This document shows, piece by piece, positions 3,448 to 44,639 of a stretch of 64,000 nucleotides of DNA. The stretch is from Girardia tigrina. Taxonomy: Eukaryota. Each line of letters begins with the position of its first letter. The first letter of the stretch is position 1. Location: the NCBI GenBank assembly GCA_001938485.1, contig MQRK01226569.1, forward strand, positions 1 to 64,000. Reading direction: 5' to 3'. The translations under genes and the position numbers were made by a program. The notes below the pieces were generated by a model. It saw nothing but the letters and a program-made list of their open reading frames with translations, was not told the origin of the DNA and ran no database searches.

Positions 3448-3694
3448 AAATAATAAACATTTAATTAGAATATCCGTGTTAATATAATTTGAATTAAATT
3501 TTAATAAAATAATTACTCATTATTTTAATCATTAAACGGATGACTTTTTAATAATATTTTTTTAATAATTTACTTTAAATAGATACAAAAAAATAATTAC
3601 CTCAATATTTTTAATTGCGTTTTGTGTTTCTATAGAAATGTAACTTTGTATATAAACGAGTATTAAAATTTCACAAAGATCAGAATCATTAAAA

Positions 3695-4102
3695 ATGACT
3701 ATTAAAATTTATATATTGTTATATATTTTGTCTTTGGCATCCTTGTATTGGACCCAAGATGTGAATCCAGACTTGAATGAAGATTGGAACCCCTTTGTGA
3801 GAAAGTTCGGCAAGAGTTATGCAAACCAAACGAAAGAAACTCGTCGTCGTAGATCTTGGGAAAGAAATATAAAATTAATTGAAAAACATAATCTTGAATA
3901 TTATCTCGGTCAAAAATCGTATTCGATGGGTATAAATAAGTTCTCCGACATGACGCAAGAAGAATTTGCGGCGATATATTTACGTTCGAACATCACCGTG
4001 ACACTACCAAATGATACGTCGACGGTTAAACTAAAAAGTCTGTCACTACCGTATAGCGTCGAGTGGAACAAGCAAGGATATGTGACCCCCGTGAAATATC
4101 AA
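3695..4102 (+). CDS. Cathepsin L-like paralog A, exon 1 (signal peptide, I29 prodomain, start of mature enzyme)
   Basis: Signal peptide, ERFNIN-like ETRRRRSWERNIKLIEKHN, GINKFSD, SVEWNKQGYVTPVKYQ, then GT donor at 4103. 408 nt, same length as exon 1 of paralog C. TATATAAA at 3649-3656. Confidence 0.9.
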
Positions 4103-4455
4103 GTATATTTTGATTAAAATGGCATTTAAATTGATATGATTGATTAATATTAAAAGCTAACAAATTAAAAAATTCTAAAGTATTTATTTAATTATTTATT
4201 AAATTTTATTTTTGAAAAAAAATTATGTTATTTTAATTCTAGAATAATTAAAGGGAATAATCAGATTCTTTACATTTTATCCATATGATCACAAAATTTC
4301 GATTTTAAAACGCATTCTTAAAAAGGAAAAATAAATAATAATAATAATTAATTACACAATCTTTAAAAGATTAATAATATTATCTTTAAAATAAAATGTC
4401 TGATTTGTAAATATGAAGAGAACTTCGTATATATCTAATATATATTTATATTTAG

Positions 4456-6948: not shown

Positions 6949-9480
6949 TCCGCCTCTTTAATTTGAAGGTCTTGTATACTTTTTCAACCATTCAATGTGG
7001 CGCGGTTTCAAGGATCTTGGATACTTCAGAACCACTTGATAAGGAGTGAGGAATTTTACAATTTTATATGGCCCTTCATATCTGAATCCTTCTTTCCTCA
7101 ATTTGTGAGGTTCCACCTTTACTAATACTTCCTCTCCCACCTGAAAAATCCGATGTCCTCGGTTTTCGTCATCTTGCATCTGTAATCGATAGGCAGACTT
7201 AGAAATATGTTCAACTGTCATCGGATTTGATTGTGTATGGGGTAATCTATTGAATGTACCATGTAAATTCAGCTTCTGTCTAAATAGAACCTCAAATGGA
7301 GTACATCCGATAGAGCTTTGCCGAGTTGTATTCAGAAGAAATTCAATTTTTGGAAGTAGTTCTTTCCAATCTAGAGAATCATTTTGAGACGGACTAGAAG
7401 TAACTACCATATCGCGCAATGAACGAATCGTGCGCTTTGCTAATCCATTGAATTGATGTTGGTATTGAGACGAAAATTCTTGAGTTATATTGAAGGTTTA
7501 CACATCTCCCGCAACTTGATGCCTTCAAAAGTTTTTCCCCTGTCTGATAAAAATGATCTGGGTTTCCCGAATCGATAAATCCATCTATTTTTAATAGCAG
7601 CAATCAACGTGTTTTCATCTTGATTACGAACTGGTACCAATACAACGACCTGGCTAAATCTATCAACCATCACAAGTACATATTTCTTTCCGTTTTAGAA
7701 GTTAAAAAGTGCAATATCCATTACAACTTCTTCAAATAATGTTTTATCATCTCGAGGTAAAAATATCTCCTTAGATGGTGTTGTTAGTACCTTTCGTTTG
7801 CACAAATAACACATTCTCTAGAAATATTCTCGATTGTATGTCGCATTTGTAGCCAGAAATAAATATCCAGCATATATTCATACAACTTCTTATATCCTAT
7901 GTGACATAAATCTTGATGAATGTACTTAATTAATCGATGTTGAGCAGCTTCTGGAACAACAACGCGTTTTATATGTCCATCCCCATAGCACAGCAATTCA
8001 TCTAATATCAAGTGATTAATGTGTTCCCACGAGGGACCTTGTGACTGATCTATTGAAGTTGGTTCATTAAGTTCTAATGAAGTAATAATTTCCAGAATAT
8101 TTTTATCTTCTTGTTGGATGTCCTTGACATGGTGGAGATCCATAGTGCTACAAGTGTTTAAATACTTTACTTTACTCTTACTTGTTTTAGCTCCGACATG
8201 TTTCGTCATACATTGAGCGCACAATGCTTCTGACAATCTTGAGATCCCATCTGCATTTGAATGTTCTGATCCTTTCCTGTACTGCAAGTCATATTGAAAA
8301 CCCGACAGATCTTCAATCCATGTCTGAAATTGAGAACTGAGTGGTTTGCTTGTCTGGGACATAAATAAAAGTGCTGTATGATCGGTACGAGCCAAGAACT
8401 TTTTTCCATATAAATAATGCTTGAAATGCAGCATGTAATCTCTTAATGCTAGCAATTCCTTTCTGGTAACACAGTAGCCCTTTTCGTGCTCACTCAGGAT
8501 TCTCGATCCGTAAGCTATCACGCGTTCCGATCCATCTTCTTGAATTTGAATAGAAGAGAAGCTGGCATCTGTATCTAGGCACCATGTTTTGGTTAATATT
8601 AGGGAAGCATAATACCGGACTTGTAGAAAGACACTTTTTAAGTTCATCAAAACTGTCTGCACACTCCTGTGACCAATAAAATTTCTCTTTAGCGGCACTN
8701 GCCGCATATAAAGGCTTTGATATTTTAGCAAAATCTTTGATAAATCGCCGGTAGTAATTGGAAAGACCCAAGAAAGAACGCAATTGAGTTGCAAATTTTG
8801 GAACCGGTGCTTCATTAATCGATTTGATTTTATCCTCACATGTTTCTATTCCTTTGCTGCTTACAACATGTCCTAAAAATCTAAACTTCAAACTCCTTCA
8901 AACGGCACTTCTGAGGATTGATTTTAAGACCGGCACTTGCAATACGACTAAAAACTTCCTCAAGCAGAACATCATGATTCTTCTCAGAGGAACTGTACAC
9001 TAAAATATCATCCAAATACACAATAACTCCTTTATACAACATATCGTGAAATATTTGATGCATTAAAGCTTGAAAAGTTGCTGGAGCAGTGCACAATCCA
9101 AAAGGTAAGCGATTGAAGAAACATTGCCCAATTTTGGTACTCAAAGCGGTTTTTAATTTTGACTCCTGTCAACTCCACTTGGTAGTAAGCACTACCCAAG
9201 TCGATAGAAGAGAACATAACTGCTCCACTCAGTGCATCCAAAAGGCCGTAGATATCTGGCTCCGGAAATGTGAATTTTTCTGTGATTGCGTTTGATGGTC
9301 GGAAATCCAAGCACATTCGAATATTATTGTCCTTTTTCTTTACTACTACCAGCTGAGAGTTCCATGGACTTTGAGACGGCTTTATGACTTGATTTTCTAA
9401 TAACTGCTTTATCAGGATATTCACTTTAGTTTCCAAATGTAGAGGTAATCTTCTCTGATTTATGGCCACTGGTGAACTAG
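6949..9480 (-). mobile_element. Ty3/Gypsy pol (RT, RNase H, integrase) of element B, frameshifted; abuts and probably interrupts element A
   Basis: SPWNS, RMCLDFR, LPFGLCTAPATFQ, YLDD, FLGHVVS, TDAS-like LDTDAS, RTDH, IDRFS-like MVDRFS, GPY motif. Confidence 0.93.
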
Positions 9481-10074
9481 TTAAACTCTGAGCACATTTC
9501 TTGTTCGTCTTTTATCTATTGAATTGTAGACTGAATCACCACTGTATTGATGTGTTTCACCCTTGCTTTTGTTGATTATAATCCTCATCATGTAGATATA
9601 TGTGCTAAAACATAATATAACTGAACTAAAACAGTGAAACTTGACCATATATTCTATGGATAAGCGTTACATACCGTCTTCGTGATTTCTTCATCATTAA
9701 TTGATTGGTATTTCAATTACACTGTGTTTCATACCGTGAACCACTAGATATAAAAGATAACCTTTAATGAGACTAAATTATTTGACAAATATGTGGTCAC
9801 AATTATTAAAAATATTCTGAAAGTATGACATATTATTTCTATCTTGAGATCAAAATAGGGTCATGTTATTGTTTAATAAAAATAAATAACAACATGATGA
9901 CAGAGGATTTCTCCAGATAAACATCATGATTACAGACACAGAATTACTTTCATTTATAATTTTCATTTTTTCGACTTAATTTGGAATAAAGATTTTGAAC
10001 AAAAGTCAATCTTTATAAAAAATCAATTTTTAGTGTTTAAACTTTATTTAAGTGGGACTGGGAGATATGTGCTT

Positions 10075-12317: not shown

Positions 12318-13551
12318 TTAAGGTTATGCATAACGTCTCGACGTTTTTATTAGATATTCATAGACGAGTTACAATATAATGATTAAGATTTAATTATCAA
12401 AATATTCCCCATTTGAATCTATTACCTTTTGTCATTTTTTCTGGCAAAAGATGAATACCCCTAGTATAAAATCATTCATCCTTGGAATCGAGGAACTCTT
12501 CTATGTAATGTCTGACCTCATCGCTATTTTTGAAGTGTCTGCCAGCCAGGGTATGTTGAAATGATCGGAAAAGATAGTAATACAATGGTGCAAGGTCTGG
12601 TGAGTAAGTTGCGCGAGAGAGAACTTGCCAGCCCAACTGCAATATTGCTTCTTTCGTTGCCGAAGCAACATGAGGTCTTGCATTATCGTGGAGCAGTATG
12701 ATCTGCTTACTATCCTGGCAGGTTAATCGTCTTTTTGCCTCGATTTCTTGTACTAAGCGCAATAATTGATCACTATATTGTTGTGCAGTGACTGTTTGAC
12801 TAGATTTCAATAGTTCATAATAGAGAGGTGCCAAAGAATCCCACCAGATGCATAAAAGGACTTTATGTTCATGAATATTTTGTTTCGGTGTTGATTTAGT
12901 TGTCTGACCTGGATCTAACCATGATTCTTTGTGCTCTGGATTGTCGAAGTAAATCCACTTCTCATCTCCGGTCACGATTCTCCATAGGAATGATTTCTTT
13001 TTGTGGCGGGCAAGGAGCGATATGCATGTTGTTAAGCGCTGGTTTGTGTTGCGCTCGGATAATTGATGTGGGACCCATTTTCCAACCTTCTAGATCTTTC
13101 CCATAGCTTTCAATCTTCTTACCACTGTTGATTGATTGATTCATCCAAGCTTCTTGGCAAGAATTGTGGTCGATTGGGTGGCATCTTTGTTAAGAAGTGT
13201 CTGTAGGTCTTCCTCGGTGTTTTCTTTTGGGCGTCCACTTCTTACTTTATCCTGGAAATCTTTCTCACCATTTCTGAACTTTATAAACCATTTGCGACAC
13301 GTTGATGCACCAATAGTTCCTTCGCCAAAAAGTTTGGTAAATCCTTTGTTTTGCTTCGACAGGGGATTTACCTAAATCAAACATGAATAATAAGCAATGT
13401 CTGATTTGATTTTTATCTTCAGCTATTTTAGACGAATCAATTAAAATATAATCAATTTTAAATATAATCAATTAAAATAAACTGTATTTTAATATAAATA
13501 TAATTTTAAGCGCCATCTATATCAGCGTCGAGAACTTATGCATAACCCTAA
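12318..13551 (-). mobile_element. Full-length decayed mariner element (1234 bp)
   Basis: TIRs ttaaggttatgcataa / ttatgcataaccctaa flanked by TA on both sides; transposase motifs TGDEKW, HDNARPH, YSPDLAP; frameshifted. Confidence 0.93.
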
Positions 13552-18302: not shown

Positions 18303-19620
18303 TCAAATATTGGACTCCACACAGGCGTTCGTGATCGATTTGATTCTATGTCCTAAATTTAAACCATTAAGGATAGTTTTATTATTGGGTATCCATGCAC
18401 CAAGTGCACCACCAATGAAAGTATATAATGTAACTGTAAACCCATAACTTTCGGTAATTTCCTCAAGAACATAAAAGTACTTGTCAAAATTCCTGATGTC
18501 AGCGACCTCAAGATTCTGCATCGTATCGTAAGGACGCTTGACATCAACAAGAAACAAAGTATTTTTATTCTCAAAATAAATCTGCAGATCAACACGATAC
18601 GTAGAGGCGTAGTACCTGCATGTCCCATTCACATGAAGAACTGCTCCAGAGTTCATTCTGATTTCAGCTACAACGATATCAAGCACAGCATTGTGTCTTG
18701 CACTCCAGAAGTTGTTCATTGGCATGCAACCAACAAGAACATCTGAAAGAGTTTCATCATCGGAAGAACCCCTGCGACAGTGTACGTGATAATCCATCCA
18801 GGAACGACACCTCACAGGGATCGTGTATGATCTGGCCTGATGAATAAATTCCCATTCAGCATTTGTAAGTCGACTAGCATAGAGTGGTGAGTTGAAATAT
18901 GCATATTTAGGTAAGGCAGGCGAATACCTTCCAGCATTTTTGAGCTTATACCACTGTACCAAAATATGAGTTCGAGATACAATTACAAAGGGTTTTAGTA
19001 AGTTTGTCCCTATTATTCGGAGTAAAACATTCGCTGGTATAGACGTCACCTACATGTTGATACACACTCAGTACGCCATCCGGGTTGGTATAAAGGAATT
19101 TCACAGTAATATTGTGAATTTCCTTGATATCGCGTATGGCGTGCTGAGTTTTATACCACCAACAATTAAGTTCATCTTCATAGTGGTTATTGAGCGTGTC
19201 AAAAACAGCATTGTCGTCTACTGTTCGGTCGGGTAAAGAGTGTCTAAGAGTTACATTAGCAGCTTCTACAATGTTCAAATCAGTCGGGTTGAGCATGTAG
19301 AAAGGATGACTAATGGATTGTATTCTGTATTCATCCACTGTAGAAGTGAGACCAATCCCCCTATTTTCTCCAGACACATAAATGTATGATGTGGATTTGT
19401 TGTCCGGAACACCTAAAATAGGTTTAATAACCATCCTTATCCTAATATCCCATCCTGTGACAAACTCAGTCAGTTTCCCAAAGGGAATGAATGTATTCCT
19501 AAACTGAAAAGTGAGTTTTGAGTGCTCAAAGAGCATATATGCATACAATTTCTGCCAGGGGGACAGCAGGGACATGTTGATGTGATTCGCATTCGATGGG
19601 AGTTTGTATAACTAGGAAAG
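18303..19620 (-). mobile_element. C-terminal part of a non-LTR retrotransposon with restriction-like endonuclease (R2/NeSL group), frameshifted
   Basis: RGIGL thumb region, degenerate CCHC (CRRG...ETLSDVLVGC), RHNAV, RVDL, LVDVKRPYD, KY, GALGAW. Confidence 0.8.
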
Positions 19621-29827: not shown

Positions 29828-32800
29828 TATTTAGGTGTATTAGAGGAGAAAATAATAAGTCTCTAACGTTATATGTCACTAACACTATCTGAAACTTGTT
29901 AATATTGTAATAAAACTTTTATCTATTCAAAGAATATTTCATTTTTTTATTTATTTCATATAGTCATGTATTTGTTGTTTTTCTGATTCATATTTATCAT
30001 TTATTCTTTTCATAAAAATATAGAAAAATGTAATCATCAATTATATTGTACAATGGAGTTAATGAAATTTGGATGAAGTTTTCAGATCAGAGTTAAAGCA
30101 AATTAGAGCCCCATTCTTCCACCGTCTTTTTGAATCATTATTAAACAAAAGGTTGATAATCATTTTTGTAATGTCCGAATCGTGAGCTAATATGACCGGA
30201 TATTTCGTTTCCCATGGTACCACATCAGTGAATATGATCCTGCTGTTCGATCGAAGCAATCCATCTGATGCCATCACTGGATTGGCTTTCAAAATACGAC
30301 TGCTCACTGGACAATCTGCCTCATTCTGTAGGAGCTTAATCTCGTTCTCAAAATGCTTCAATTGATCGTCTTTTATTAACATTTTCTCAGCCATGCGCGT
30401 CCATTGAGATTCATTTTTAGATTAAATGTTATCATCTATTACATCTTTCCTTTAAGTCTTTTTCATCTCATCTTTTAGACTTTCGGCCTTTTCCGTAATT
30501 GCCTTCGCCCACTCCGTTTCTCATTTAAGAATCCAGAATTTTGTATCGTCTAGCTCCTCTGGTTCATCCACAGAAACTACAGTCATCATTGTGAACTCTT
30601 TTCTGCGTTCTTCGTTCTTTGCCTTAATTGACATTGCTGGTTGCTTCGGCCATTCTTCACTTCCTTTTGACAGAAACTCAGGTCCACTTTTCCAGATTTC
30701 ATTGGTCGTTAATTGTTCAACCGTTGCTCCTCGCGTGAGCAGATCAGCAGGATTTGACTTTGAATTCACATGACGCCATTGAAGCCCTGTTGTTCGTTCC
30801 TGGATGTAGCTTACACGATTTGCCACNNNNNNNNNNNNNNNNNNNNNNNNNNNNNNNNNNNNNNNNNNNNNNNNNNNNNNNNNNNNNNNNNNNNNNNNNN
30901 NNNNNNNNNNNNNNNNNNNNNNNNNNNNNNNNNNNNNNNNNNNNNNNATAAACATGCCGCGACGAGCTCCAATCTTGGAATCGAGACCGATTTCAATGGA
31001 GTCACTCGAGTTTTTGCAAATACTTGATTCACAACTACTTCGTTCTCATTTTATACTCTCAACTATACTGCGGTCCCATAGGCTTCGCAAGAGGCATCAC
31101 AAAACACATGGCATGAAATCGAAGATTCTGGCGAAACTCCCAGATATCGTTTGAATTGCAATCGATCTAACCGTTCCAATTGTTCATACCAATTCCGCTA
31201 GTCCTTTCGGAATTCCTCCGGCAAATTATCGTCCCAGTCTAAGTTCATGATCCACAGTTTCTGCATCAAGATCTTTCCTTTTATGGTGACACAACTCAAA
31301 AATCCTAATGGATCGAATATCCTTGCAAGTTGACTAAGTAAAGTTCGTTTTGTCATTTTTGTTTTACCATCCACTTTTCTGGCATCAAAACAATAGATAT
31401 CTTTTGAGACGTCTCATTTCAACCTCAAAGTTTTGGTAGTCGTCGCCCCTTCTTCAAACATAATATTCTTTGGTCGCTTCTCTTTCGGAACTAACTGCAT
31501 CAATTTTTCAGAATTTGAGACCCATTTATGAACTTCCATTCCGGCGTGACCCCATATCTCTTTCAATTGTCTGAACAACTTTGTCGCCTTCTTTTCCGAA
31601 TTTACAGAATCTATACAATCATCCATATATGTCGATTTCTTTATAACTTCCACCGCGCTTGAATATTTTTCCTCAAATTGATCTGCATTTATTCTGGAAA
31701 CGAGCTGTGCTAAAAACGGCGATGAGTTTAGACCAAACACCACTCGATTAAATTCGAAAGTCTTCAATATTCCGCTCTGATCGTCCTCCCATAGGAAACG
31801 CAAGAATTTTCTGTCATCTTTACACACCTCTACTTGCAGATACATTTCCTTAATATCACACGATATTACATAACGATTTCTTCGCATTCTCAGAAGTACA
31901 TCCAATAATTCGGACTGCAGCTTTGGCCCTGTGTGTAAATAATCGTTAATACATCTCCCTTGAACTTTGGCGGCTGTATCAAACACAATTCGGAGTTTAA
32001 TTTCTCCTTGGTTACGCTTGACCACAGGGAAGTGTGGTAAGATCCATTGTTGTTCATCTCTGATCACTGATCCCATTTCTGAAATGTATCCTTTTCCGAT
32101 ATATTCTTGCAACACTCTCTGATAAACATCTTTCACTTCCGGTTGTTTATCTACCATTCGTCGGAGGGATTTCAATCTATTATTTGCCATTCCAAACGTG
32201 TTTGGCCACAATTCAACCTTGTATTTCCATGGTAATCCGACACAGTATCTCTCCCCATCATAATGAGCAGTTTCCATTGCTCGATTCAGGATCCCATTTC
32301 CTTTGGTTGCATTAACTCTTCCTCTAACATCGTCGAGATTTTCAAATTCTTCCAATTTCCAGAGAAGTTCCATGTCGCTCTCTGCTTTGATTTCGCGGCT
32401 GAAATATGTACAAATAAAATTGGATTGTGTTGATTTATAGTCTTGGTGTACCTTCCCCATACACGTCCATCCCAGTGGAGTGAGACGCGCAACTTGATCT
32501 TCCGTATGTCCTCGAACTTCTTTTAGTGCTGTTTGAAATTTCAAATAATTAGCACTGATCAACCCATCAATCACACCCTTCTTGCCGATGCTCGGAAAAC
32601 GTATTCTTTTTAAATGACTCCACTTGGATTTTGTCTGATTCCAATCAACTATTTCCATCGGCCCGGTCACATTTTTCACCGCAAGTGCTGAGACACTCTC
32701 TTTAACTCATCTTCTTTCATCACATATTTGAAATCTTACTCTCTCCACCGGTATCGACCTTCTTTCTCCTCCCAGAACTTGGACACTGATCTTGGCTTGA

Positions 32801-33075
32801 TCTCCATACAGCTGCAATTCATTCGCGAATTCAATCACGAAAGTCTCTGTGCTGGCGTCATCTAATAGAAAATTTCCTCTCAGCCATTTGTCACCATTCA
32901 TCACCCACGCGCTTACGGTTCGCAGAGCAATAACTCATTATTGCTCTCTCTTTTGACTCGGTCTGGTGCTGGTGCTCGTGATCAGTGTGTGATTTTTACT
33001 TCCAGACTCATCTTGTTCATTTTTATTTCCGTTGTAGGACTCTGCATCGTGTCGGTTTTCAGCACCGATCTTTCT

Positions 33076-33195
33076 GTGAAAATATCTGCAGTCGACCGTA
33101 TTGCACGATTGTTTGAAGATGCTCTTGCAAAGCTCTGGGTGCGAGAACCGACAATCTTGGCCGAATCTGCAATATCCTCTTTCGTAATTTTTGCA
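33076..33195 (-). other. Tandem CCCH zinc fingers within the BEL/Pao gag frame
   Basis: CKNYERGYCRFGQDCRFSH (C-x7-C-x5-C-x3-H) and CKSIFKQSCNTVDCRYFH (C-x7-C-x4-C-x3-H). Confidence 0.88.
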
Positions 33196-34275
33196 TATTG
33201 ACACAGCTTTCTTCTCGGGTCCCTGATGACTTCTCTTTGATTTTTGACACTCTGTAGTCATAGAAACAAAGGATTTTTTCCGATCGTTGTTTATGATCGT
33301 TCACCTATTTCTATCGGCACTCAACATCCCGATGCCATGGACTGTCTCGGCCACCATTCTTTGGAGTTTTGCTTCCTTCTCCAGCCACTCTTTCAAAGTC
33401 ACCACTCCTTCTCCGAGATTCAAACCTTGTCGGTGCCTCTCCCACATTAGCACCATGTAAACTGGCAGTTTTTGCAACAGACTTTGGTAGAGCAGTCCGT
33501 TGCCCAATTCTCCTACCTTCCCAATTGTCCTTAATCTTAGCACAGGGCTGTCGAGCAAAGTCACAAATTTATCTAGTTGTGCAGCGGTGACTTCGGAAAT
33601 GGTGCGAAACTCGGCTACCTCCTTCATAATTGCCGAGTAGCTGCGATTTTCGCCACCATAAAACTTTTCAAGTTTTTCTAGGATAGCTTTATAAGCTTCT
33701 CCTCCAAATCAGAAATTGTGCACAAGCTCTCGAGCTTGACCCTCCAGACACTCTTCCAACTACAGCTGCTTGTCCACATCCGGAATCTCCATCTTGTCCA
33801 CACATTCATCAAAGATCTCTCTCCATTTTGAATATTTTATGTCATTTCCAGAGAACCGGGGTAGCTGTAATCGTTTCAATCTGAACGTTCCCAACGAGTT
33901 TGTTGACGAATGATTGAAACTCTTGCTTTCTGGAGCTGCAGTTGAATTCCATTTCGGATCGGTCTGCGCTTCGAATTTCAACTGATACTCATCGTGCTTG
34001 TTCTCGATCTCTTTCATCTCGTCCATCAGCTTTGCCACTTCATCTTTGTGGCCTAATTCCTTCCCCAAATTCACGAGGTCTTCGAACCTTTTCGTCGCCC
34101 TTTCGAACTCATTTTCGTAATCTTCGCCTCTCTTCAGTACTTCTTCATTCGTTCGAAGTGCCTCCAAGGCTTGATTTCACCTCCTTGTCAATTGCCGTTT
34201 CCAGTTCGGCTTTTGGTATTTTCCGTCTTCCCATTGATTCTCCGGACTTTCTACTCCCGCGGTCTTCTTATCGCT

Positions 34276-34503
34276 TCCTCCTCGTAACCGGAGCAATAAA
34301 TGGATTGTGGCGTCTTTATGGATGTTGTATTCTCCACACATTCTACCGTTCTCGAGCTGTTTCCCGGCGAAAATCAACCTCTGTTGATCAGGAGGAACAC
34401 CTTCTTTCTCCTGGATCTTGGCCTTGATTTCGTCGATTGAGTCGCTTGGCTGAACCTCCATTACGATTGTCCTACCCGTTAGCACCCTAATAAAAATTTG
34501 AGA
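34276..34503 (-). other. Ubiquitin domain embedded in the retroelement frame
   Basis: 76 aa, 52/76 identical to canonical animal ubiquitin by manual alignment; ends LRLRGG; Met1 replaced by Ser; intronless. Confidence 0.95.
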
Positions 34504-36299
34504 CACGACATCAGATTTAGTTGATCGATCGTTAGTTCAACTGATATGACGGCGCCCGCTTCCAAATTGTCCATTTAAGAGAGCTTCTTCAACGGATTCT
34601 TCTGATTTGAATTCGATGTAAGTGGAAATTAAGACGACATTCCCGTCGCATGAGGCACAATTACAGAAAATTTAGAAAAATTCTTCTTTGTTCACGAGGG
34701 TCTCAATTACATGTAGCTGGTCCTCATAATTCTGAAATCCTTCATAGTTCAAATCGGACTGGTTTTTAAATGCTTCGAACTCTAATTGCAGTCTCGACCA
34801 CTCATCCTCTCTAATGATGCGACTCGATCTCGACCAAGATTCATCCGATAACTGCACATTTTCATTGCACCTAAAATCACAATTTCTCATCTTTGGATCG
34901 GATGCTGAAGACCAGACTCTATGATTCACCGACAGTGACATCCTCAACGAAACATTCACCGAAACACAATCAAACATGTTCAAATAATACAGTGAACATT
35001 GAGGGAAAGGTCTCGACCGGGTGCTGGGCCCAATATTTAGTCGGTGGAACTCGTTACCCAAGATTCGCAAAGACTCATCATGACAAGCGCTACAGCAATC
35101 ACTATCAGAAACCTCCCCAGAAAACTTAACGCGATTCTCAAATTGATTTATGTCATCACTCTCAATCCCCATCACAACACTCACATTCAAAACATGGAGT
35201 CTATCAAACACACTCTGACACTCATCCATCAGGGGGAAGAATGCTCGAGATTCACACACAAGCCCACGACCCAGAGGACCACTCATCAACACCAGAGCGC
35301 CGCAACCACGCTCTGCTACCAGAAATGGCGGTGCGAGAGCGAGCGCAGCTTGGTGGCCGCGGCGTCTTGACGCTGGGGGTGGACTGCGAGTCGTGGGGGG
35401 CTTAAATTATCAATCTCACGGACGTCAGGTGAGCTCCAACGTTTGTCGTCCGATATTTTTGTCATTGTCGTTGGCTGATCAGAATCCGATGAGGGTTTCA
35501 TGATGGCTTCTTCTTCCGACAGTCCGCCACAACGATCGATATGACCTCGTGATCTCCCAATCGAGCTTGAGATTCGATGAGAGAATTCTCGACTCTTGAG
35601 TCCGATCATTACCTCTCGCGAATTTATCATCACCATCGTTTGACGCTTCAATTCTCAACATCGGACTCACAGTGACAATTTCCTCATTGATCGGTAGACA
35701 ATTCGAATTCGAANNNNNNNNNNTCATTACAGTCGTTACGAAATTCGTTTTGTTCGATTCAAATTGTTGAGTTTCATTCACCAACATAGACATTCAACTC
35801 TTTTTTATTTCACGTTTTATCAATTCACACTTTAAAAAAATGTCAACCCTCCAACAAACAATAAAAGAACTTCGCGCCAAAATTTTTATTTATTTATGAA
35901 ATTCAACGATTCAAACAAATTGAATCTAATAAAAATTTTAAAATTTAAAATTAAAAAAATTAAATTTAAAATTAAAAAATTAAAATTTAAAATTACAAAT
36001 TAAAATTTTTCGAAAATCAAAAAGTGAAATTAATTTATTTTGACTAAAATATTCGAGTCATTCCCAAATTGGCCAATCTATTGTTAGATTGGCCAATTAT
36101 AGGTCCAATTCGAATTTATAGACTCGTACATTTTCCTTGAAATGTTTGAGTGTCTCGAGAAAATAATGTAACCGTTGGCAGGGGCCTCGGTCTAGGTCTA
36201 GTTTGAACAGCGGCATTATGGTATTTAACTCCGGAAACTTTATGGCGAAAGCCGCCAAGAAAAAGTTTTTTTTGTTTTATTTTTTTATAACAGTAACAA

Positions 36300-37860
36300 T
36301 TTGATTTTTTATCGTACCATCATCGAGTTGAATCGGAACAGTGAAAAAAAATCGATATGACATTTTCTTTTTCAGCCATCTTTAACACCATCTGTTGATT
36401 TTCCGTCATTTTATATTTTTTTCAACATGTTCTTCACTTTTTAATAAAACATTGGTGCTTTTATCATCAATATTGTTTACAGTTTTATCTTCTTTTTGTA
36501 ATTCATTACTTTCATCATTGTTTTGTTGATAAGTTTCTTCGTTTTGATCTCTTTTCACCAATGACTCTTTACTAATCTTCATTAAATTTTCGGGTAACTT
36601 TTTTTCTTCTTCGTCATCGATTTGTGATACATTTTCCTTATCTTCATTATCATTATTTATGTTATCCTCCGTAACTTCATCAGTAATTGTAGCATTATTT
36701 TATTTCTTCATCCAGATAATTCTCTGTGCTCTTAATTTCGGGAATTGATTCGGTAGATGGTTTATTTACATTTCCTTCTGTACCTTTATTTTCAATGGCA
36801 GATGTATCCAACTCTATGTTATCCATATCAGTTCTGCTTTCTAATTTTATTTCTTCAAGAGTTTCGACTACACGATCCTCATTTTCCTTTCTTTCTGATT
36901 CCGTTTCTTCGATTTTTTCATCAAAATTTTCTTTTCTTGCTGATTCTATTTCTTCGATGGTCTCATCAGCGTTTTCCATTCTTTCTCCATATTGATTTGC
37001 TCATTTAATTCTTTTGTTCTCGAACTCAAACACTTTATTTGATCTTTCAAATCTTTATTTTCTTTCTCAATTCGTTTCAATTGTTCCTTCTCTCTCTTTA
37101 ACTCATTCAACTCTTTGAAGAACGATCTATTTTCATTTAATAATTCTCTTAATTTATCCTTCAAGCATCCGGCAAGCCGTTAATTTGTTTATAAATTTGA
37201 AGAAATGTTTCTTCATTTATCTTTCTAGTTCGAAGAAGGCTTTTAAGGATCATTGTAGTGCGTTCAACATGCTTTGGATTCTTCTGGTTCAGTAACTGCT
37301 CGATCATTACATCATTCGGCGCTAGTAGCAACGTCTTCCCCACAGCCGTAAAAGTCCTCATGTAGGCCGGAAACGATTTCAGTTGCGATGTGACGATTTA
37401 TGTGAGTCTGATTTTTATTTTAGTCGTTTCCAACTGCGCTTTGAAGAATTTCGTTTGTTCGTTGCATTGAGTTCGTTGGAGTTGGAATTCTGTGAGCGCT
37501 TCTTTGAGACGAGGATCAACTGTGCTTTCTATTGGTTGGTGGATATTGGATTTAATGTCGATCTGTGTAAACAGGTAACCGAAATTGAATTTGGAGTTCG
37601 CTTTAGATCGTCGCTGCATTTCAACTTGCATTCGGGCGTGGTGATTCATGTTCTTAACATTATCCCTCTCCATTTCCAATATCGTTTCACTACATTCGTT
37701 ATTGATTTGCTCTCTCAACCGAGCCTCATTTTTACAATCAAACAGGTGCATACCTTGATGAATGACATAAATATTTGTATTAGTAAATTATTAATAAAAT
37801 TTGACTTTAGTTCTAAAAATTTAATACATGACGACCTAATATGATGATTCATTATCCGTG
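36300..37860 (-). pseudogene. Disrupted long ORF with coiled-coil and acidic low-complexity regions, origin unknown
   Basis: Chain of same-strand ORF fragments (37398-37751, 37161-37361, 36946-37164, 36695-36979), rich in E/K/N. Confidence 0.45.
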
Positions 37861-40984: not shown

Positions 40985-42020
40985 AGAGGGGACTAAAAAA
41001 CCGCGCTTTTTTCGATAAATGTATTTCTATTGGAATTATTGATTTACAGGTACAAGTAAATTTTAATATAAATATATTATATATAAATTTTTTTGTGATG
41101 GTTGAACGTCTGTTTTTGATGAAAAAGGTTCAGGTAGGTCACGTGAAATTGGCGAAGAAATAGCGAAAAAACTCAAGAAAATCATGCAGTGTGAGCGACG
41201 AATCACCACCAGAGAACTGACAATGCGATTAAATGTCAGCACAAGTTCCATACAATCACTGCTTGCGAAAACTGGCATTAGAAAATTGTGTTCACACTTC
41301 GTGCCACGGTTTATAACAGCAGACATGAAGGATCGACGATTGATGTGCTGCCAGGAAAACGTAAACCTCTATGAACGTATTGGAGACCTCTTCTTACAGA
41401 ATATTATGACAGTGGATGAAACACTACTTGCCCTTTATGTCCCAGAATCAAGACATGAGTCTCAAGAGTGGAAGCTGCCAGGGGAAGGGTGTTCGAAGGT
41501 GTACGATCATCAACCTCTGACAAAAAAGCCATCATACTCACCACTTTTTGGGATGCAAATGGAATGATCCTCGCAGATTTTGCGGAAGCTGTAGTTCGTA
41601 TCAACAGTGAATACTACTCTCGACTCGTGCTACAGGCCAGAAAGCTGAGAAGGAAGAGCAGAGTTTGTGAGTTATATTATTTGCACGACAATGCACCCAT
41701 CTACACAACTGGGCTGTCAATGTCATCAATTGAGGGTTGTGATCTCACCCTGCTCTCCCACCCGCCATACAGTCTGGATCAGGCGCCATCCGATTATCAT
41801 CTCTTCAACCACCTCAAGCGAGCTCTCAGGGGTCAATATTTTGCTACGAAAGAAGACTTGAAGGAGGCAATCTCAAATTTCTTGGCTCAACAGTCTCCGA
41901 AATTCTTCGAAAAAGCCTTTCTGGACCTTGTTGTGCGCTGGAAAAAATGTGTTGGTGTGAATGGAGATTTCTTTGAGAAATGATACCTTTATAACTTGCT
42001 TGTTATGAAAAATAAATTTC
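40985..42020 (+). mobile_element. mariner transposon remnant in intron 1 of cathepsin paralog C
   Basis: FVPRF, TVDET, LHDNAP, HPPYSLDQAPSDYHLF; one frameshift. Confidence 0.9.
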
Positions 42021-43633
42021 ATTGGAATCGGATTATTATTTTTATGTTAGGCTCACTACTTATTGAGCGCACGACGTAATTTGACGTCGTGAAAATCTTA
42101 CCATAATGCATAGCAACGCTCAACCTCATAAAACCAATTTTACAAAGACTTTCTAGGAGCAAAATGCAATAATACAAAAAATAAGTGTTCCACAAACATC
42201 CTTCTTTCATGACATGAACCTGATGATCAACTATGTATTTATGATTTTGGAATCTAAGAAGAAAGAACAAAAGTTTAATTCCGTAGAACAATGGAAAAAT
42301 TTCTTAACTGAGTATAGTAATCAATTAAGTTTAATTTAATTTAAATAATTAATAATTTCATTAGTGTAAAAATTGATGTGTGATACCTTCCAAATTGCAA
42401 ATGAGAGAGGGCATTAATTTGTTGTGAAATTCGTTGAAGAGTGTGAACAATGAAATTTTTTTGATATTTGTTCTTTTCCGATGAAAAAGTATAAATATTT
42501 TGTATCTAGTCGTTATTATGATTATAATCATAATAACGACTAGATACAAAATAAATACTAGATACTAGATAAATCATGTCTTTATACAGNNNNNNNNNNN
42601 NNNNNNNNNNNNNNNNNNNNNNNNNNNNNNNNNNNNNNNNNNNNNNNNNNNNNNNNNNNNNNNNNNNNNNNNNNNNNNNNNNNNNNNNNNNNNNNNNNNN
42701 NNNNNNNNNNNNNNNNNNNNNNNNNNNNNNNNNNNNNNNNNNNNNNNNNNNNNNNNNNNNNNNNNNNNNNNNNNNNNNNNNNNNNNNNNNNNNNNNNNNN
42801 NNNNNNNNNNNNNNNNNNNNNNNNNNNNNNNNAAAATTATTATTTTTATTGTGTATGAAGGAAAGTTATTTTAAAAAGATTAATTAATTATTTTACTGTT
42901 AAGTATTTAAAGAATGGAAATTAATTGTTTTGTTTATATGAAATAAAATTGTTTTTTTGAGCGCTATTAGTTTCTTTTGAATTGAATTCACAGAGTCCAT
43001 TAATTTTTGGTCATAAAAGAAGATTTCGAAAATTATTTATTTCCCTTATATTAAACTGAGTTCTTGACTGAGCAAATCCGTTGAAAGCAAGGCAGTGATA
43101 TTTAAAATAATTCAATAAATGAATAATAAAATTATCAAGCAAAGTATTGGAGTAATAACTTTAAAACATTAAAATATTTAAAACATATTCATAAATCAGT
43201 TTTTAAAACTATAATTATATTTCATAAAAAACGTAATTTCAAAGTTATTAAAAATTTATTATAAAAGTAAAAGAGTATAATTTTTTAAAAAAAATTATAT
43301 GATTTTTAATACATAACACTTTTTTAGAAAATGTATAAGAATATTAAATAAAAATATTAAAACTGATGTAAAAAATCTGTTTAAATTGTGTTATAAATAA
43401 AAATATGTATTTGGATTAAACGAAGATTATATAAACACAACAAACATGGATTCAAGACACAATGTCGATCGAATCTACCCTTAACTATTTCACATTTTTA
43501 AATAAAAATAAAAAAATATCATTAACTGTATATAATTAATAGGGGTACAGGACAACTTGGCTATGTACAACTTTGAGCTGTCCGCTGCCGGGTCGTCAGT
43601 TATTCAATTAAAAGATAGAAACAAATTATATAC

Positions 43634-44041
43634 CTGATCCTTTACATCTGTAACGTAACCCTTCTTTCTCCAATCTACACTTTTCGGTAAATTAAATGAA
43701 GTATTGAAAGTCGAAAAGGTCTTCGAATGTTTCTTGTGAGGAAAAGTTACGGGAAGATAAAGTAGTTTAAATTCTTCATGAGTCAAATCAGCAAACTGAT
43801 TAATTCCTAATGAATACTTGTGATGTCCAAGATCAAACTTTATATTATGCTTTTGAATAAATTGTATATTATCCTCCCAAATTCTTCGACGATCTAGCTC
43901 ATGGTATACATCTTCGTACGATTTGTTATACTTATTAACAAACATTAGCCATTCATCATTTAATAATATATTGAGACTCTTTGTGGATTGAGACAAGAGA
44001 ATGTTTGCAAGTAACCATAATAAATAACTAGAAAAATTCAT
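43634..44041 (-). CDS. ctsl: Cathepsin L paralog C, exon 1
   Basis: Signal peptide, ELDRRRIWEDNIQFIQKHN (ERFNIN), GINQFAD, LPKSVDWRKKGYVTDVKDQ|gt. The five exons sum to 999 nt (332 aa plus stop) in frame. Confidence 0.93.
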
Positions 44042-44639
44042 TTTGAAAAGTGATAATAAATATCCGGTCGATTATTTATAAATAATGAACACAGACCTTT
44101 TCAAAGATAGCATACAAAAGAATACAAAAAAGAATACAAAAGAATATTGATTTTGTTTCTGACCTACTACAATGTGTTCAAAAGTTGTTTATGGCCATTG
44201 AAATTCAAAGACCGACCTTTGCCTGACTCATTAAATTGAGCACAAACTTAATTAAAAACGTTTACTAATTCATCTCTAACTGGAAATACATAAGTTCAAT
44301 TGAACGCAAACTTGCATTAGAAAACTCTTTTACAACATATTTTTATCTAAAACAGTTTTTTTTCAATTTAAGAATAAGGGATACAAATGAAATACAACAA
44401 AAAAAATGAATAAACTAAATAAAATAACTGACGATATTTTTGTAAATGTTATTCTTAAATCTTCTAAATACTTTTGAATAAAGAATTTATAATTTTTCAA
44501 TGCACTCTAATTTATCTTCCATCTTGATCTCGTGAGTGACGCTTTGTTCAACATTATCATAATATTAGTCTCTATTTTTTATTCATAAATTATTAAAAGA
44601 AAATCATTCGTACAAATTTAATTCTTATGGGGACAAAAA

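Follow-up and report, generated by a model that had tools for sequence, protein, structure and literature searches.

A ubiquitin domain ahead of Gag

What might a ubiquitin domain be doing inside the polyprotein of a retrotransposon, immediately ahead of Gag? The question is raised by a 64,000-nucleotide stretch of the Girardia tigrina genome (contig MQRK01226569.1, positions 1 to 64,000; hereafter the window), which holds a decayed BEL/Pao element on its minus strand. A single minus-strand frame (35400-30949), interrupted by 13 stops and 0 frameshifts, runs through a leader, ubiquitin, DUF1759, CCCH zinc fingers, a protease motif, reverse transcriptase (RT) and Peptidase_A17. The ubiquitin-Gag architecture is real, genome-wide and under selection, and the ubiquitin-like domain (UBL) is probably a pro-domain, cleaved by the host, that gives Gag a defined N-terminus.

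The window ubiquitin consists of 76 residues ending in Gly-Gly, scores 88.6 bits against PF00240 (cut-off 25.4) and directly precedes Gag, in frame with RT. An earlier reading of the letters alone (the original prediction) gave its identity to canonical ubiquitin as 52/76, which holds against the commonest unit in the polyubiquitins retrieved; against the Girardia host's own ubiquitin the figure is 51/76. The residues it named were also correct (K6R, K11R and S65A changed; L8, I44, K27, K29, K33, K48, K63 and R72-G76 kept), although V70L had escaped mention.

The fragmented assembly and the gaps near the element might suggest that a processed ubiquitin had inserted by chance, or been misassembled, at one locus. 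A search of the genome with a 901-base DNA query covering the junction gave 372 candidates, of which the best 40 were scored, and all 30 of the loci cut out carried ubiquitin sequence ahead of the same Gag start, some of them frameshifted or partial, as had been predicted of other copies; they fall into four subtypes, A-D. The junction was also bridged by contigs from two of four other public runs, which extend to either side of it by 31 letters or more; two of the runs may be of RNA. Flanking long terminal repeats (LTRs), which had been proposed as a check, are present in a sister copy with ubiquitin-Gag: its two LTRs are 97.3% identical over ~1.86 kb and it has TG...CA ends, a polypurine tract (PPT) and a 5-bp target duplication, so that the ubiquitin lies inside a true insertion. 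Since the junction recurs in many copies, including the one with paired LTRs, and in other runs, chance or misassembly can be regarded as refuted. Three further loci (L035, L037, L040) have UBL-Gag between repeat pairs and no RT match; these may be non-autonomous derivatives reduced to gag, with the UBL retained.

Spread through the BEL families of the genome

An RT search of the genome gave 1950 candidates, the best 144 of which were scored, and 82 RT-bearing loci were examined, a selection that spans the range of identities and was limited to loci with sequence upstream. A UBL lay upstream of Gag in 32 of these; Gag was present with its start lost, masked or at a contig end in 13, and the remaining 37 had neither a UBL nor a Gag match. 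A ubiquitin-fold domain stands ahead of Gag in 11 RT-defined BEL families, down to ~42% RT identity, and the original prediction, which spoke of one lineage, had understated what is a genome-wide radiation. Ten of the families were seen directly, spread over both main RT clades of the genome, and the eleventh was recognised through coordinates, an SDE2-type domain lying ~570 bases upstream in 6/6 best Gag matches. Five RT lineages were unscorable, their Gag start being missing or masked. Among the scored loci there was no family with an intact Gag start that lacked a UBL, in an assembly too broken to exclude one. One copy, with Gag from residue 11, no UBL and no primer-binding site (PBS), reads as truncated. 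The RT tree is a quick tree of BEL-type rows only, with no Gypsy or Copia outgroup, and its deep support is weak (80-84), so that it decides neither how many captures there were nor whether they share one origin.

Organisation of the window element

The features of the window element are as follows.

35326..35944, minus strand: 3' part of the 5' LTR, ending ...CA at 35326, where the matches of other copies to both repeats stop; its 5' boundary is not fixed
35326, minus strand: LTR end, in the same context as that of the paired-LTR copy (TG...CA ends, 5-bp target duplication)
35304..35321, minus strand: PBS, common to the families examined, which we take to be of the initiator-Met tRNA type
34504..35303, minus strand: variable leader in the Gag frame, with an RNA-recognition motif (RRM)-like fragment at ~34561-34719
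34276..34503, minus strand: diverged ubiquitin ending LRLRGG, without initiator Met, Ser next (PF00240, E 2.2e-25)
33430..34275, minus strand: Gag, an N-terminal helical region and then DUF1759 at 33430-33855 (PF03564, E 3.3e-14)
33076..33195, minus strand: two CCCH zinc fingers at the nucleocapsid position, with no CCHC knuckle (PF00642, E 2.9e-6, and pattern scan)
32400..32934, minus strand: aspartic protease region, with LLDDAST at ~32862, presumably the protease motif
31525..31914, minus strand: RT core with YMDD (PF00078, RVT_1, E 2.7e-10)
30952..31353, minus strand: Pao Peptidase_A17 / RNase H region, cut short by an assembly gap (PF05380, E 1e-40)
30150..30824, minus strand: Pol continuation beyond the gap, where the element is cut off

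The single frame of the original prediction is confirmed and all ten stops that it listed (10/10) lie where it placed them, three more near 31198, 31063 and 31051 having been left out; it had also overlooked the PBS (35321), the LTR end (35326), the RRM-like fragment and the CCCH nature of the fingers. By its Pol domains and LTR features the element is assigned to BEL/Pao, and its database relatives carry the same domains. The order Gag, protease (PR), RT, RNase H (RH) is present in the window copy and the integrase core is missing; the element is cut off near 30150, with no 3' LTR within the 64-kb window. The protease region of the window copy gave no Pfam match, and that of a sister copy only a weak one to Asp_protease_2 (E 0.26). 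CCCH fingers typify one whole RT clade, consisting of the window family, both SDE2-type families and four more, while a second UBL-bearing clade retains CCHC knuckles; a pattern scan of 40 database BEL proteins found CCCH in three and CCHC in 30. Because RT and Pao domains define BEL/Pao, the CCCH type is treated as a derived change.

Donors of the domain

Identity to host ubiquitin lies between 74/76 and 31/76 for the ubiquitin-type UBLs, and one further, more diverged family still matches PF00240 (E 4e-13). A FUBI origin for one diverged UBL family, whose tail is KLLGG, was rejected, there being no match to host FUBI and the best PDB matches being ubiquitin. Two sister families carry a UBL ending LRIRGG. 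This domain had no Pfam match and no PDB sequence match; its predicted structure has a ubiquitin fold (pLDDT 72, TM score ~0.7 to ubiquitin, Foldseek E ~0.002), and its last 40 residues match the UBL of host SDE2 (hhalign probability 95.7%, E 1e-8, 40 columns). Taking model and alignment together, it is classed as an SDE2-type UBL. It is established that linear fusions of ubiquitin, and those of SDE2 likewise, undergo cleavage behind the UBL. In the case of SDE2 the UBL is removed by USP5 (excerpt of PMC13572447). On these assignments, a single site before Gag is taken by two host domains that have cleavage behind the UBL in common.

For the near-canonical ubiquitins, the idea that they were captured very recently from one of the host genes sampled was dropped, as the synonymous divergence (dS) to the closest of these is 1.3-1.4; an unsampled host gene is a possible donor. 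In the host loci themselves (L169-L182, L189-L191) ubiquitin has Ser at position 19 and its genes form GC-rich and AT-rich classes; FUBI is strongly diverged, and there are two SDE2 loci.

Selection and residue conservation

When gap-free natural copies were compared pairwise, the ratio of nonsynonymous to synonymous divergence (dN/dS) of the window ubiquitin was 0.15 with subtype B, 0.19 with C and 0.17 with D, the upper bootstrap limits being 0.30-0.37. Gag gave much the same between lineages (0.16-0.25), for which the 10 of 21 copies with an intact Gag frame were used. The ubiquitin ratios, against three sister subfamilies, indicate that purifying selection acted on the domain while it was part of the element, as had been suggested originally. 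Within subtype A the ubiquitin dN/dS is 0.5, as expected from decay after insertion. Two near-canonical groups, with up to 73-74/76 identity, are separated by a dS of 1.0 and a dN of 0.054 (dN/dS 0.05).

So strong a constraint on near-canonical ubiquitin would suit a UBL that acts as an effector, attached or released, whether as a decoy for ubiquitin-binding defence factors or as a sorting tag recruiting the endosomal sorting complex required for transport (ESCRT), and planarian Burro elements do carry ubiquitination- and apoptosis-related domains (excerpt of PMC6431247). Across 11 ubiquitin groups, however, the residues kept are G76 in 11, G75 in 10, I44 and K48 in seven each, R74 in six, V70 in five and M1 in two, so that several families have lost the I44/V70 patch and K48; moreover, the SDE2-type domain fills the same place and an intact tail should be removed quickly. 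An effector function is on this evidence unlikely. The ubiquitin tail is normally unstructured, so folding does not explain its retention. With few exceptions the tail is followed by Ser, Met or Ala, and Pro comes next in 0/79 copies; the Ser originally proposed as the Gag start is right for the window copy, although not as the sole residue.

Another explanation is dosage control, in which slow or no cutting of the N-terminal ubiquitin would send part of Gag-Pol to the proteasome and so limit the element. The retention of K27, K29 and K33 in 11/11 groups and the variation of R74 by family would fit such a scheme. The Gly-Gly is nevertheless kept, K48 is lost in 4/11 groups, and Ser, Met and Ala do not belong to the classic destabilising first residues, which makes this decidedly improbable.

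Leaders, capture and cassette swapping

The leaders ahead of the UBL differ by family and include an HSP90 fragment (E 4e-26), leucine-rich repeats (LRR), an RRM and a partial ubiquitin tail. RRM_1 matches sister copies (E 6e-5 and 0.004) but not the window copy. Behind the HSP90 fragment, six loci (L077, L079, L183, L185, L187, L188) have a near-canonical ubiquitin with Cys74 in 6/6. The phase between PBS and ubiquitin is constant in 5/5 subtype-A copies of five different leader lengths, and the same phase is found in 9 of the 14 window-family copies that have a PBS. Subtypes B and D have a Gag dS of 0.14 but a ubiquitin dS of 1.18, and subtype A copies have a ubiquitin dS of 0.16 but a Gag dS of 1.16; judged by these divergences, the histories of ubiquitin and Gag disagree and UBL cassettes were swapped between Gag lineages. 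In database BEL proteins Gag often begins directly with Met and a similar helix, and the UBL therefore sits about where Gag would begin. At one locus (L056) an N-terminal fragment of PSMC2 (26S proteasome subunit 7; Pfam E 2e-29) lies upstream of the PBS, inside the LTR and in the same frame as the leader, so that LTRs also carry captured host mRNA.

The variety of these fragments (HSP90, PSMC2, LRR, RRM) could mean that the 5' end acts as a hot spot at which abundant mRNAs are captured, the UBLs being passive cargo that persists for its harmlessness and brings the element no benefit. A 38-39 nt HSP90-like piece common to two distant families, ~53% RT-identical, points the same way (3/3 pairs exceed all 200 shuffles; the window subtype, as a control, did not). 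Yet the other captured fragments come and go while the place next to Gag invariably belongs to the UBL, and the dN/dS of the UBL is as low as that of Gag, so that pure cargo has very little probability. If harmlessness depends on being cut off, this explanation merges with that of a host-cleaved pro-domain.

A putative host-cleaved pro-domain

Under the preferred reading, that of a host-cleaved pro-domain, translation would start near the PBS and read through the captured-mRNA leader, the UBL and Gag-Pol. Host deubiquitinases would cut after the Gly-Gly and free a Gag whose first residue (Ser, Met or Ala) is set irrespective of the leader, a constant N-terminus that would leave the leader free to vary. 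The UBL fusion may also help expression or folding. We infer that these UBL-Gag fusions are cut and that the element benefits. The processing signal of the original prediction is strengthened by the finding that SDE2 served as another donor for this site, whereas the decoy and ESCRT roles that it also offered are weakened by the loss of I44, K48 and V70 in several families and the keeping of the tail. A wider proposal has perhaps an even chance of being right: throughout the BEL/Pao radiation, Gag N-terminal maturation would have been handed to host deubiquitinases by way of interchangeable cassettes from two or more host precursors, polyubiquitin and SDE2 among them, and the cut would shield Gag from upstream captures, free the 5' capture zone and tie transposition to host proteases.

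A number of observations weigh against the pro-domain. The SDE2 match is limited to the C-terminal 40 residues and the Foldseek E-values are above 0.001. Near-intact ubiquitin over a dS of ~1.0 in two groups goes beyond the needs of a mere cut site. Twelve other positions are, like the best-kept tail residue, retained in 11/11 groups, four of which are sister subtypes. R74 is changed in several families, being Cys in 6/6 copies of one, and such a change may slow cutting; the most diverged UBLs may or may not still be substrates. The tail is intact in 67/79 copies (34/41, 16/16 and 17/22), about what decay after insertion would leave, so that this figure is no argument and the pattern across families alone counts.

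LTR retroelements are taken to process their polyproteins by their own protease (PMC8742986). If the pro-domain reading is true, a UBL that is fixed before Gag and cut by the host would add a new route of maturation, the deubiquitinase would offer a direct handle for host control of transposition, and a pestivirus trick so far described for some cattle viruses would persist over long evolution. A host-cut UBL would also explain the tolerance by gag of repeated host-mRNA capture at its 5' end. In that case natural ubiquitin variants, numbering in the hundreds (identity 31-74 of 76), would also be available for asking what a deubiquitinase needs.

Other observations in the genome and window

A ubiquitin search of the genome gave 2802 candidates, the best 150 of which were scored, many of them in long open frames; ubiquitin gene counts and RNA interference designs in this organism could be confounded. 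In a nuclear pseudogene copy of COX1 (L192) AAA stands opposite Asn/Thr, and several ATA opposite Ile, which fits the flatworm/echinoderm mitochondrial code. Elsewhere in the window, a decayed Glu/Lys-rich, coiled-coil-like coding stretch lies upstream of the LTR remnant (36400-37500, minus strand). There are also what we take to be two exons resembling cathepsin L prepro regions (3656-4117, plus; 43604-44071, minus) and remnants presumably of a Gypsy element (6958-9511, minus), mariner transposases (12472-13089 and 41106-41983, both minus) and a non-LTR element (18303-19611, minus).

Comparison with known systems

The original prediction knew of no described BEL/Pao element with UBL-Gag, and none was found in the literature searched; Repbase, Dfam, GyDB, subscription journals and supplements lay beyond reach and may hold such an annotation. 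No UBL domain is described for BEL/Pao in the profile of the virus taxonomy committee ICTV (PMC8742986), and 'ubiquitin' is absent from the main text, supplements aside, of the excerpted BEL/Pao survey PMC3118150. A UBL was found in 0/48 RT-matching database BEL proteins (from 150 matches listed and four BEL proteins), many of them fragments, so that absence is weakly indicated; among them, P0184 groups within a UBL family in the RT tree and is an RT-only fragment. Other protein searches for the fusion were dominated by polyubiquitins in one case and returned no BEL proteins in another, a metagenome scan gave 79 ubiquitin loci, none with BEL domains, and a plasmid search had no match and is uninformative.

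Like other BEL/Pao elements (Belpaoviridae, Semotivirus), those of Girardia have LTRs, PBS, PPT, a single gag-pol frame, DUF1759, the order PR-RT-RH and Peptidase_A17 (PMC8742986); unlike them, they have a UBL and a captured leader before Gag. CCHC knuckles are expected in the nucleocapsid (excerpt of PMC12440569), whereas the window clade has CCCH; the ICTV profile names tRNA-Arg/Gly PBSs (PMC8742986), whereas the type here appears to be another; and LTRs are of 0.2-1.2 kb, whereas one pair here measures 1.86 kb. The giant Burro elements of planarians are also LTR elements with a Ubi2/SUMO-like domain in the polyprotein, but they belong to another superfamily (Gypsy), the domain is one of a set of accessory domains downstream of Gag, and no processing role is proposed in the excerpted text (PMC6431247). 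Host UBL-fusion precursors (polyubiquitin, UBA52, SDE2, FUBI-eS30) share the layout UBL-Gly-Gly-protein and are the domain donors; here, instead, a leader comes first, which makes the UBL internal, and Gag-Pol takes the role of passenger.

There is a parallel in layout with cytopathic pestiviruses, in which captured ubiquitin yields the authentic NS3 N-terminus via host hydrolases, and in which captured, often mosaic or partial ubiquitin stands directly before a viral protein (bovine viral diarrhoea virus Osloss, CP1, CP Rit), several donors having been used (NEDD8, SMT3B, LC3, GATE-16) (excerpts of PMC8310069 and PMC13517609). In Girardia the sequences show the same signal layout, a UBL with its tail intact directly before the protein and a residue other than Pro next. 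The pestivirus cases are sporadic insertions in single isolates of an RNA virus that release NS3, whereas in the Girardia BEL elements the UBL is fixed across a diverged radiation, stands before Gag, has drifted to 31/76 and includes an SDE2-type donor. The UBL-Gag BEL element combines what was known separately, the BEL/Pao element and the UBL as a processing signal.

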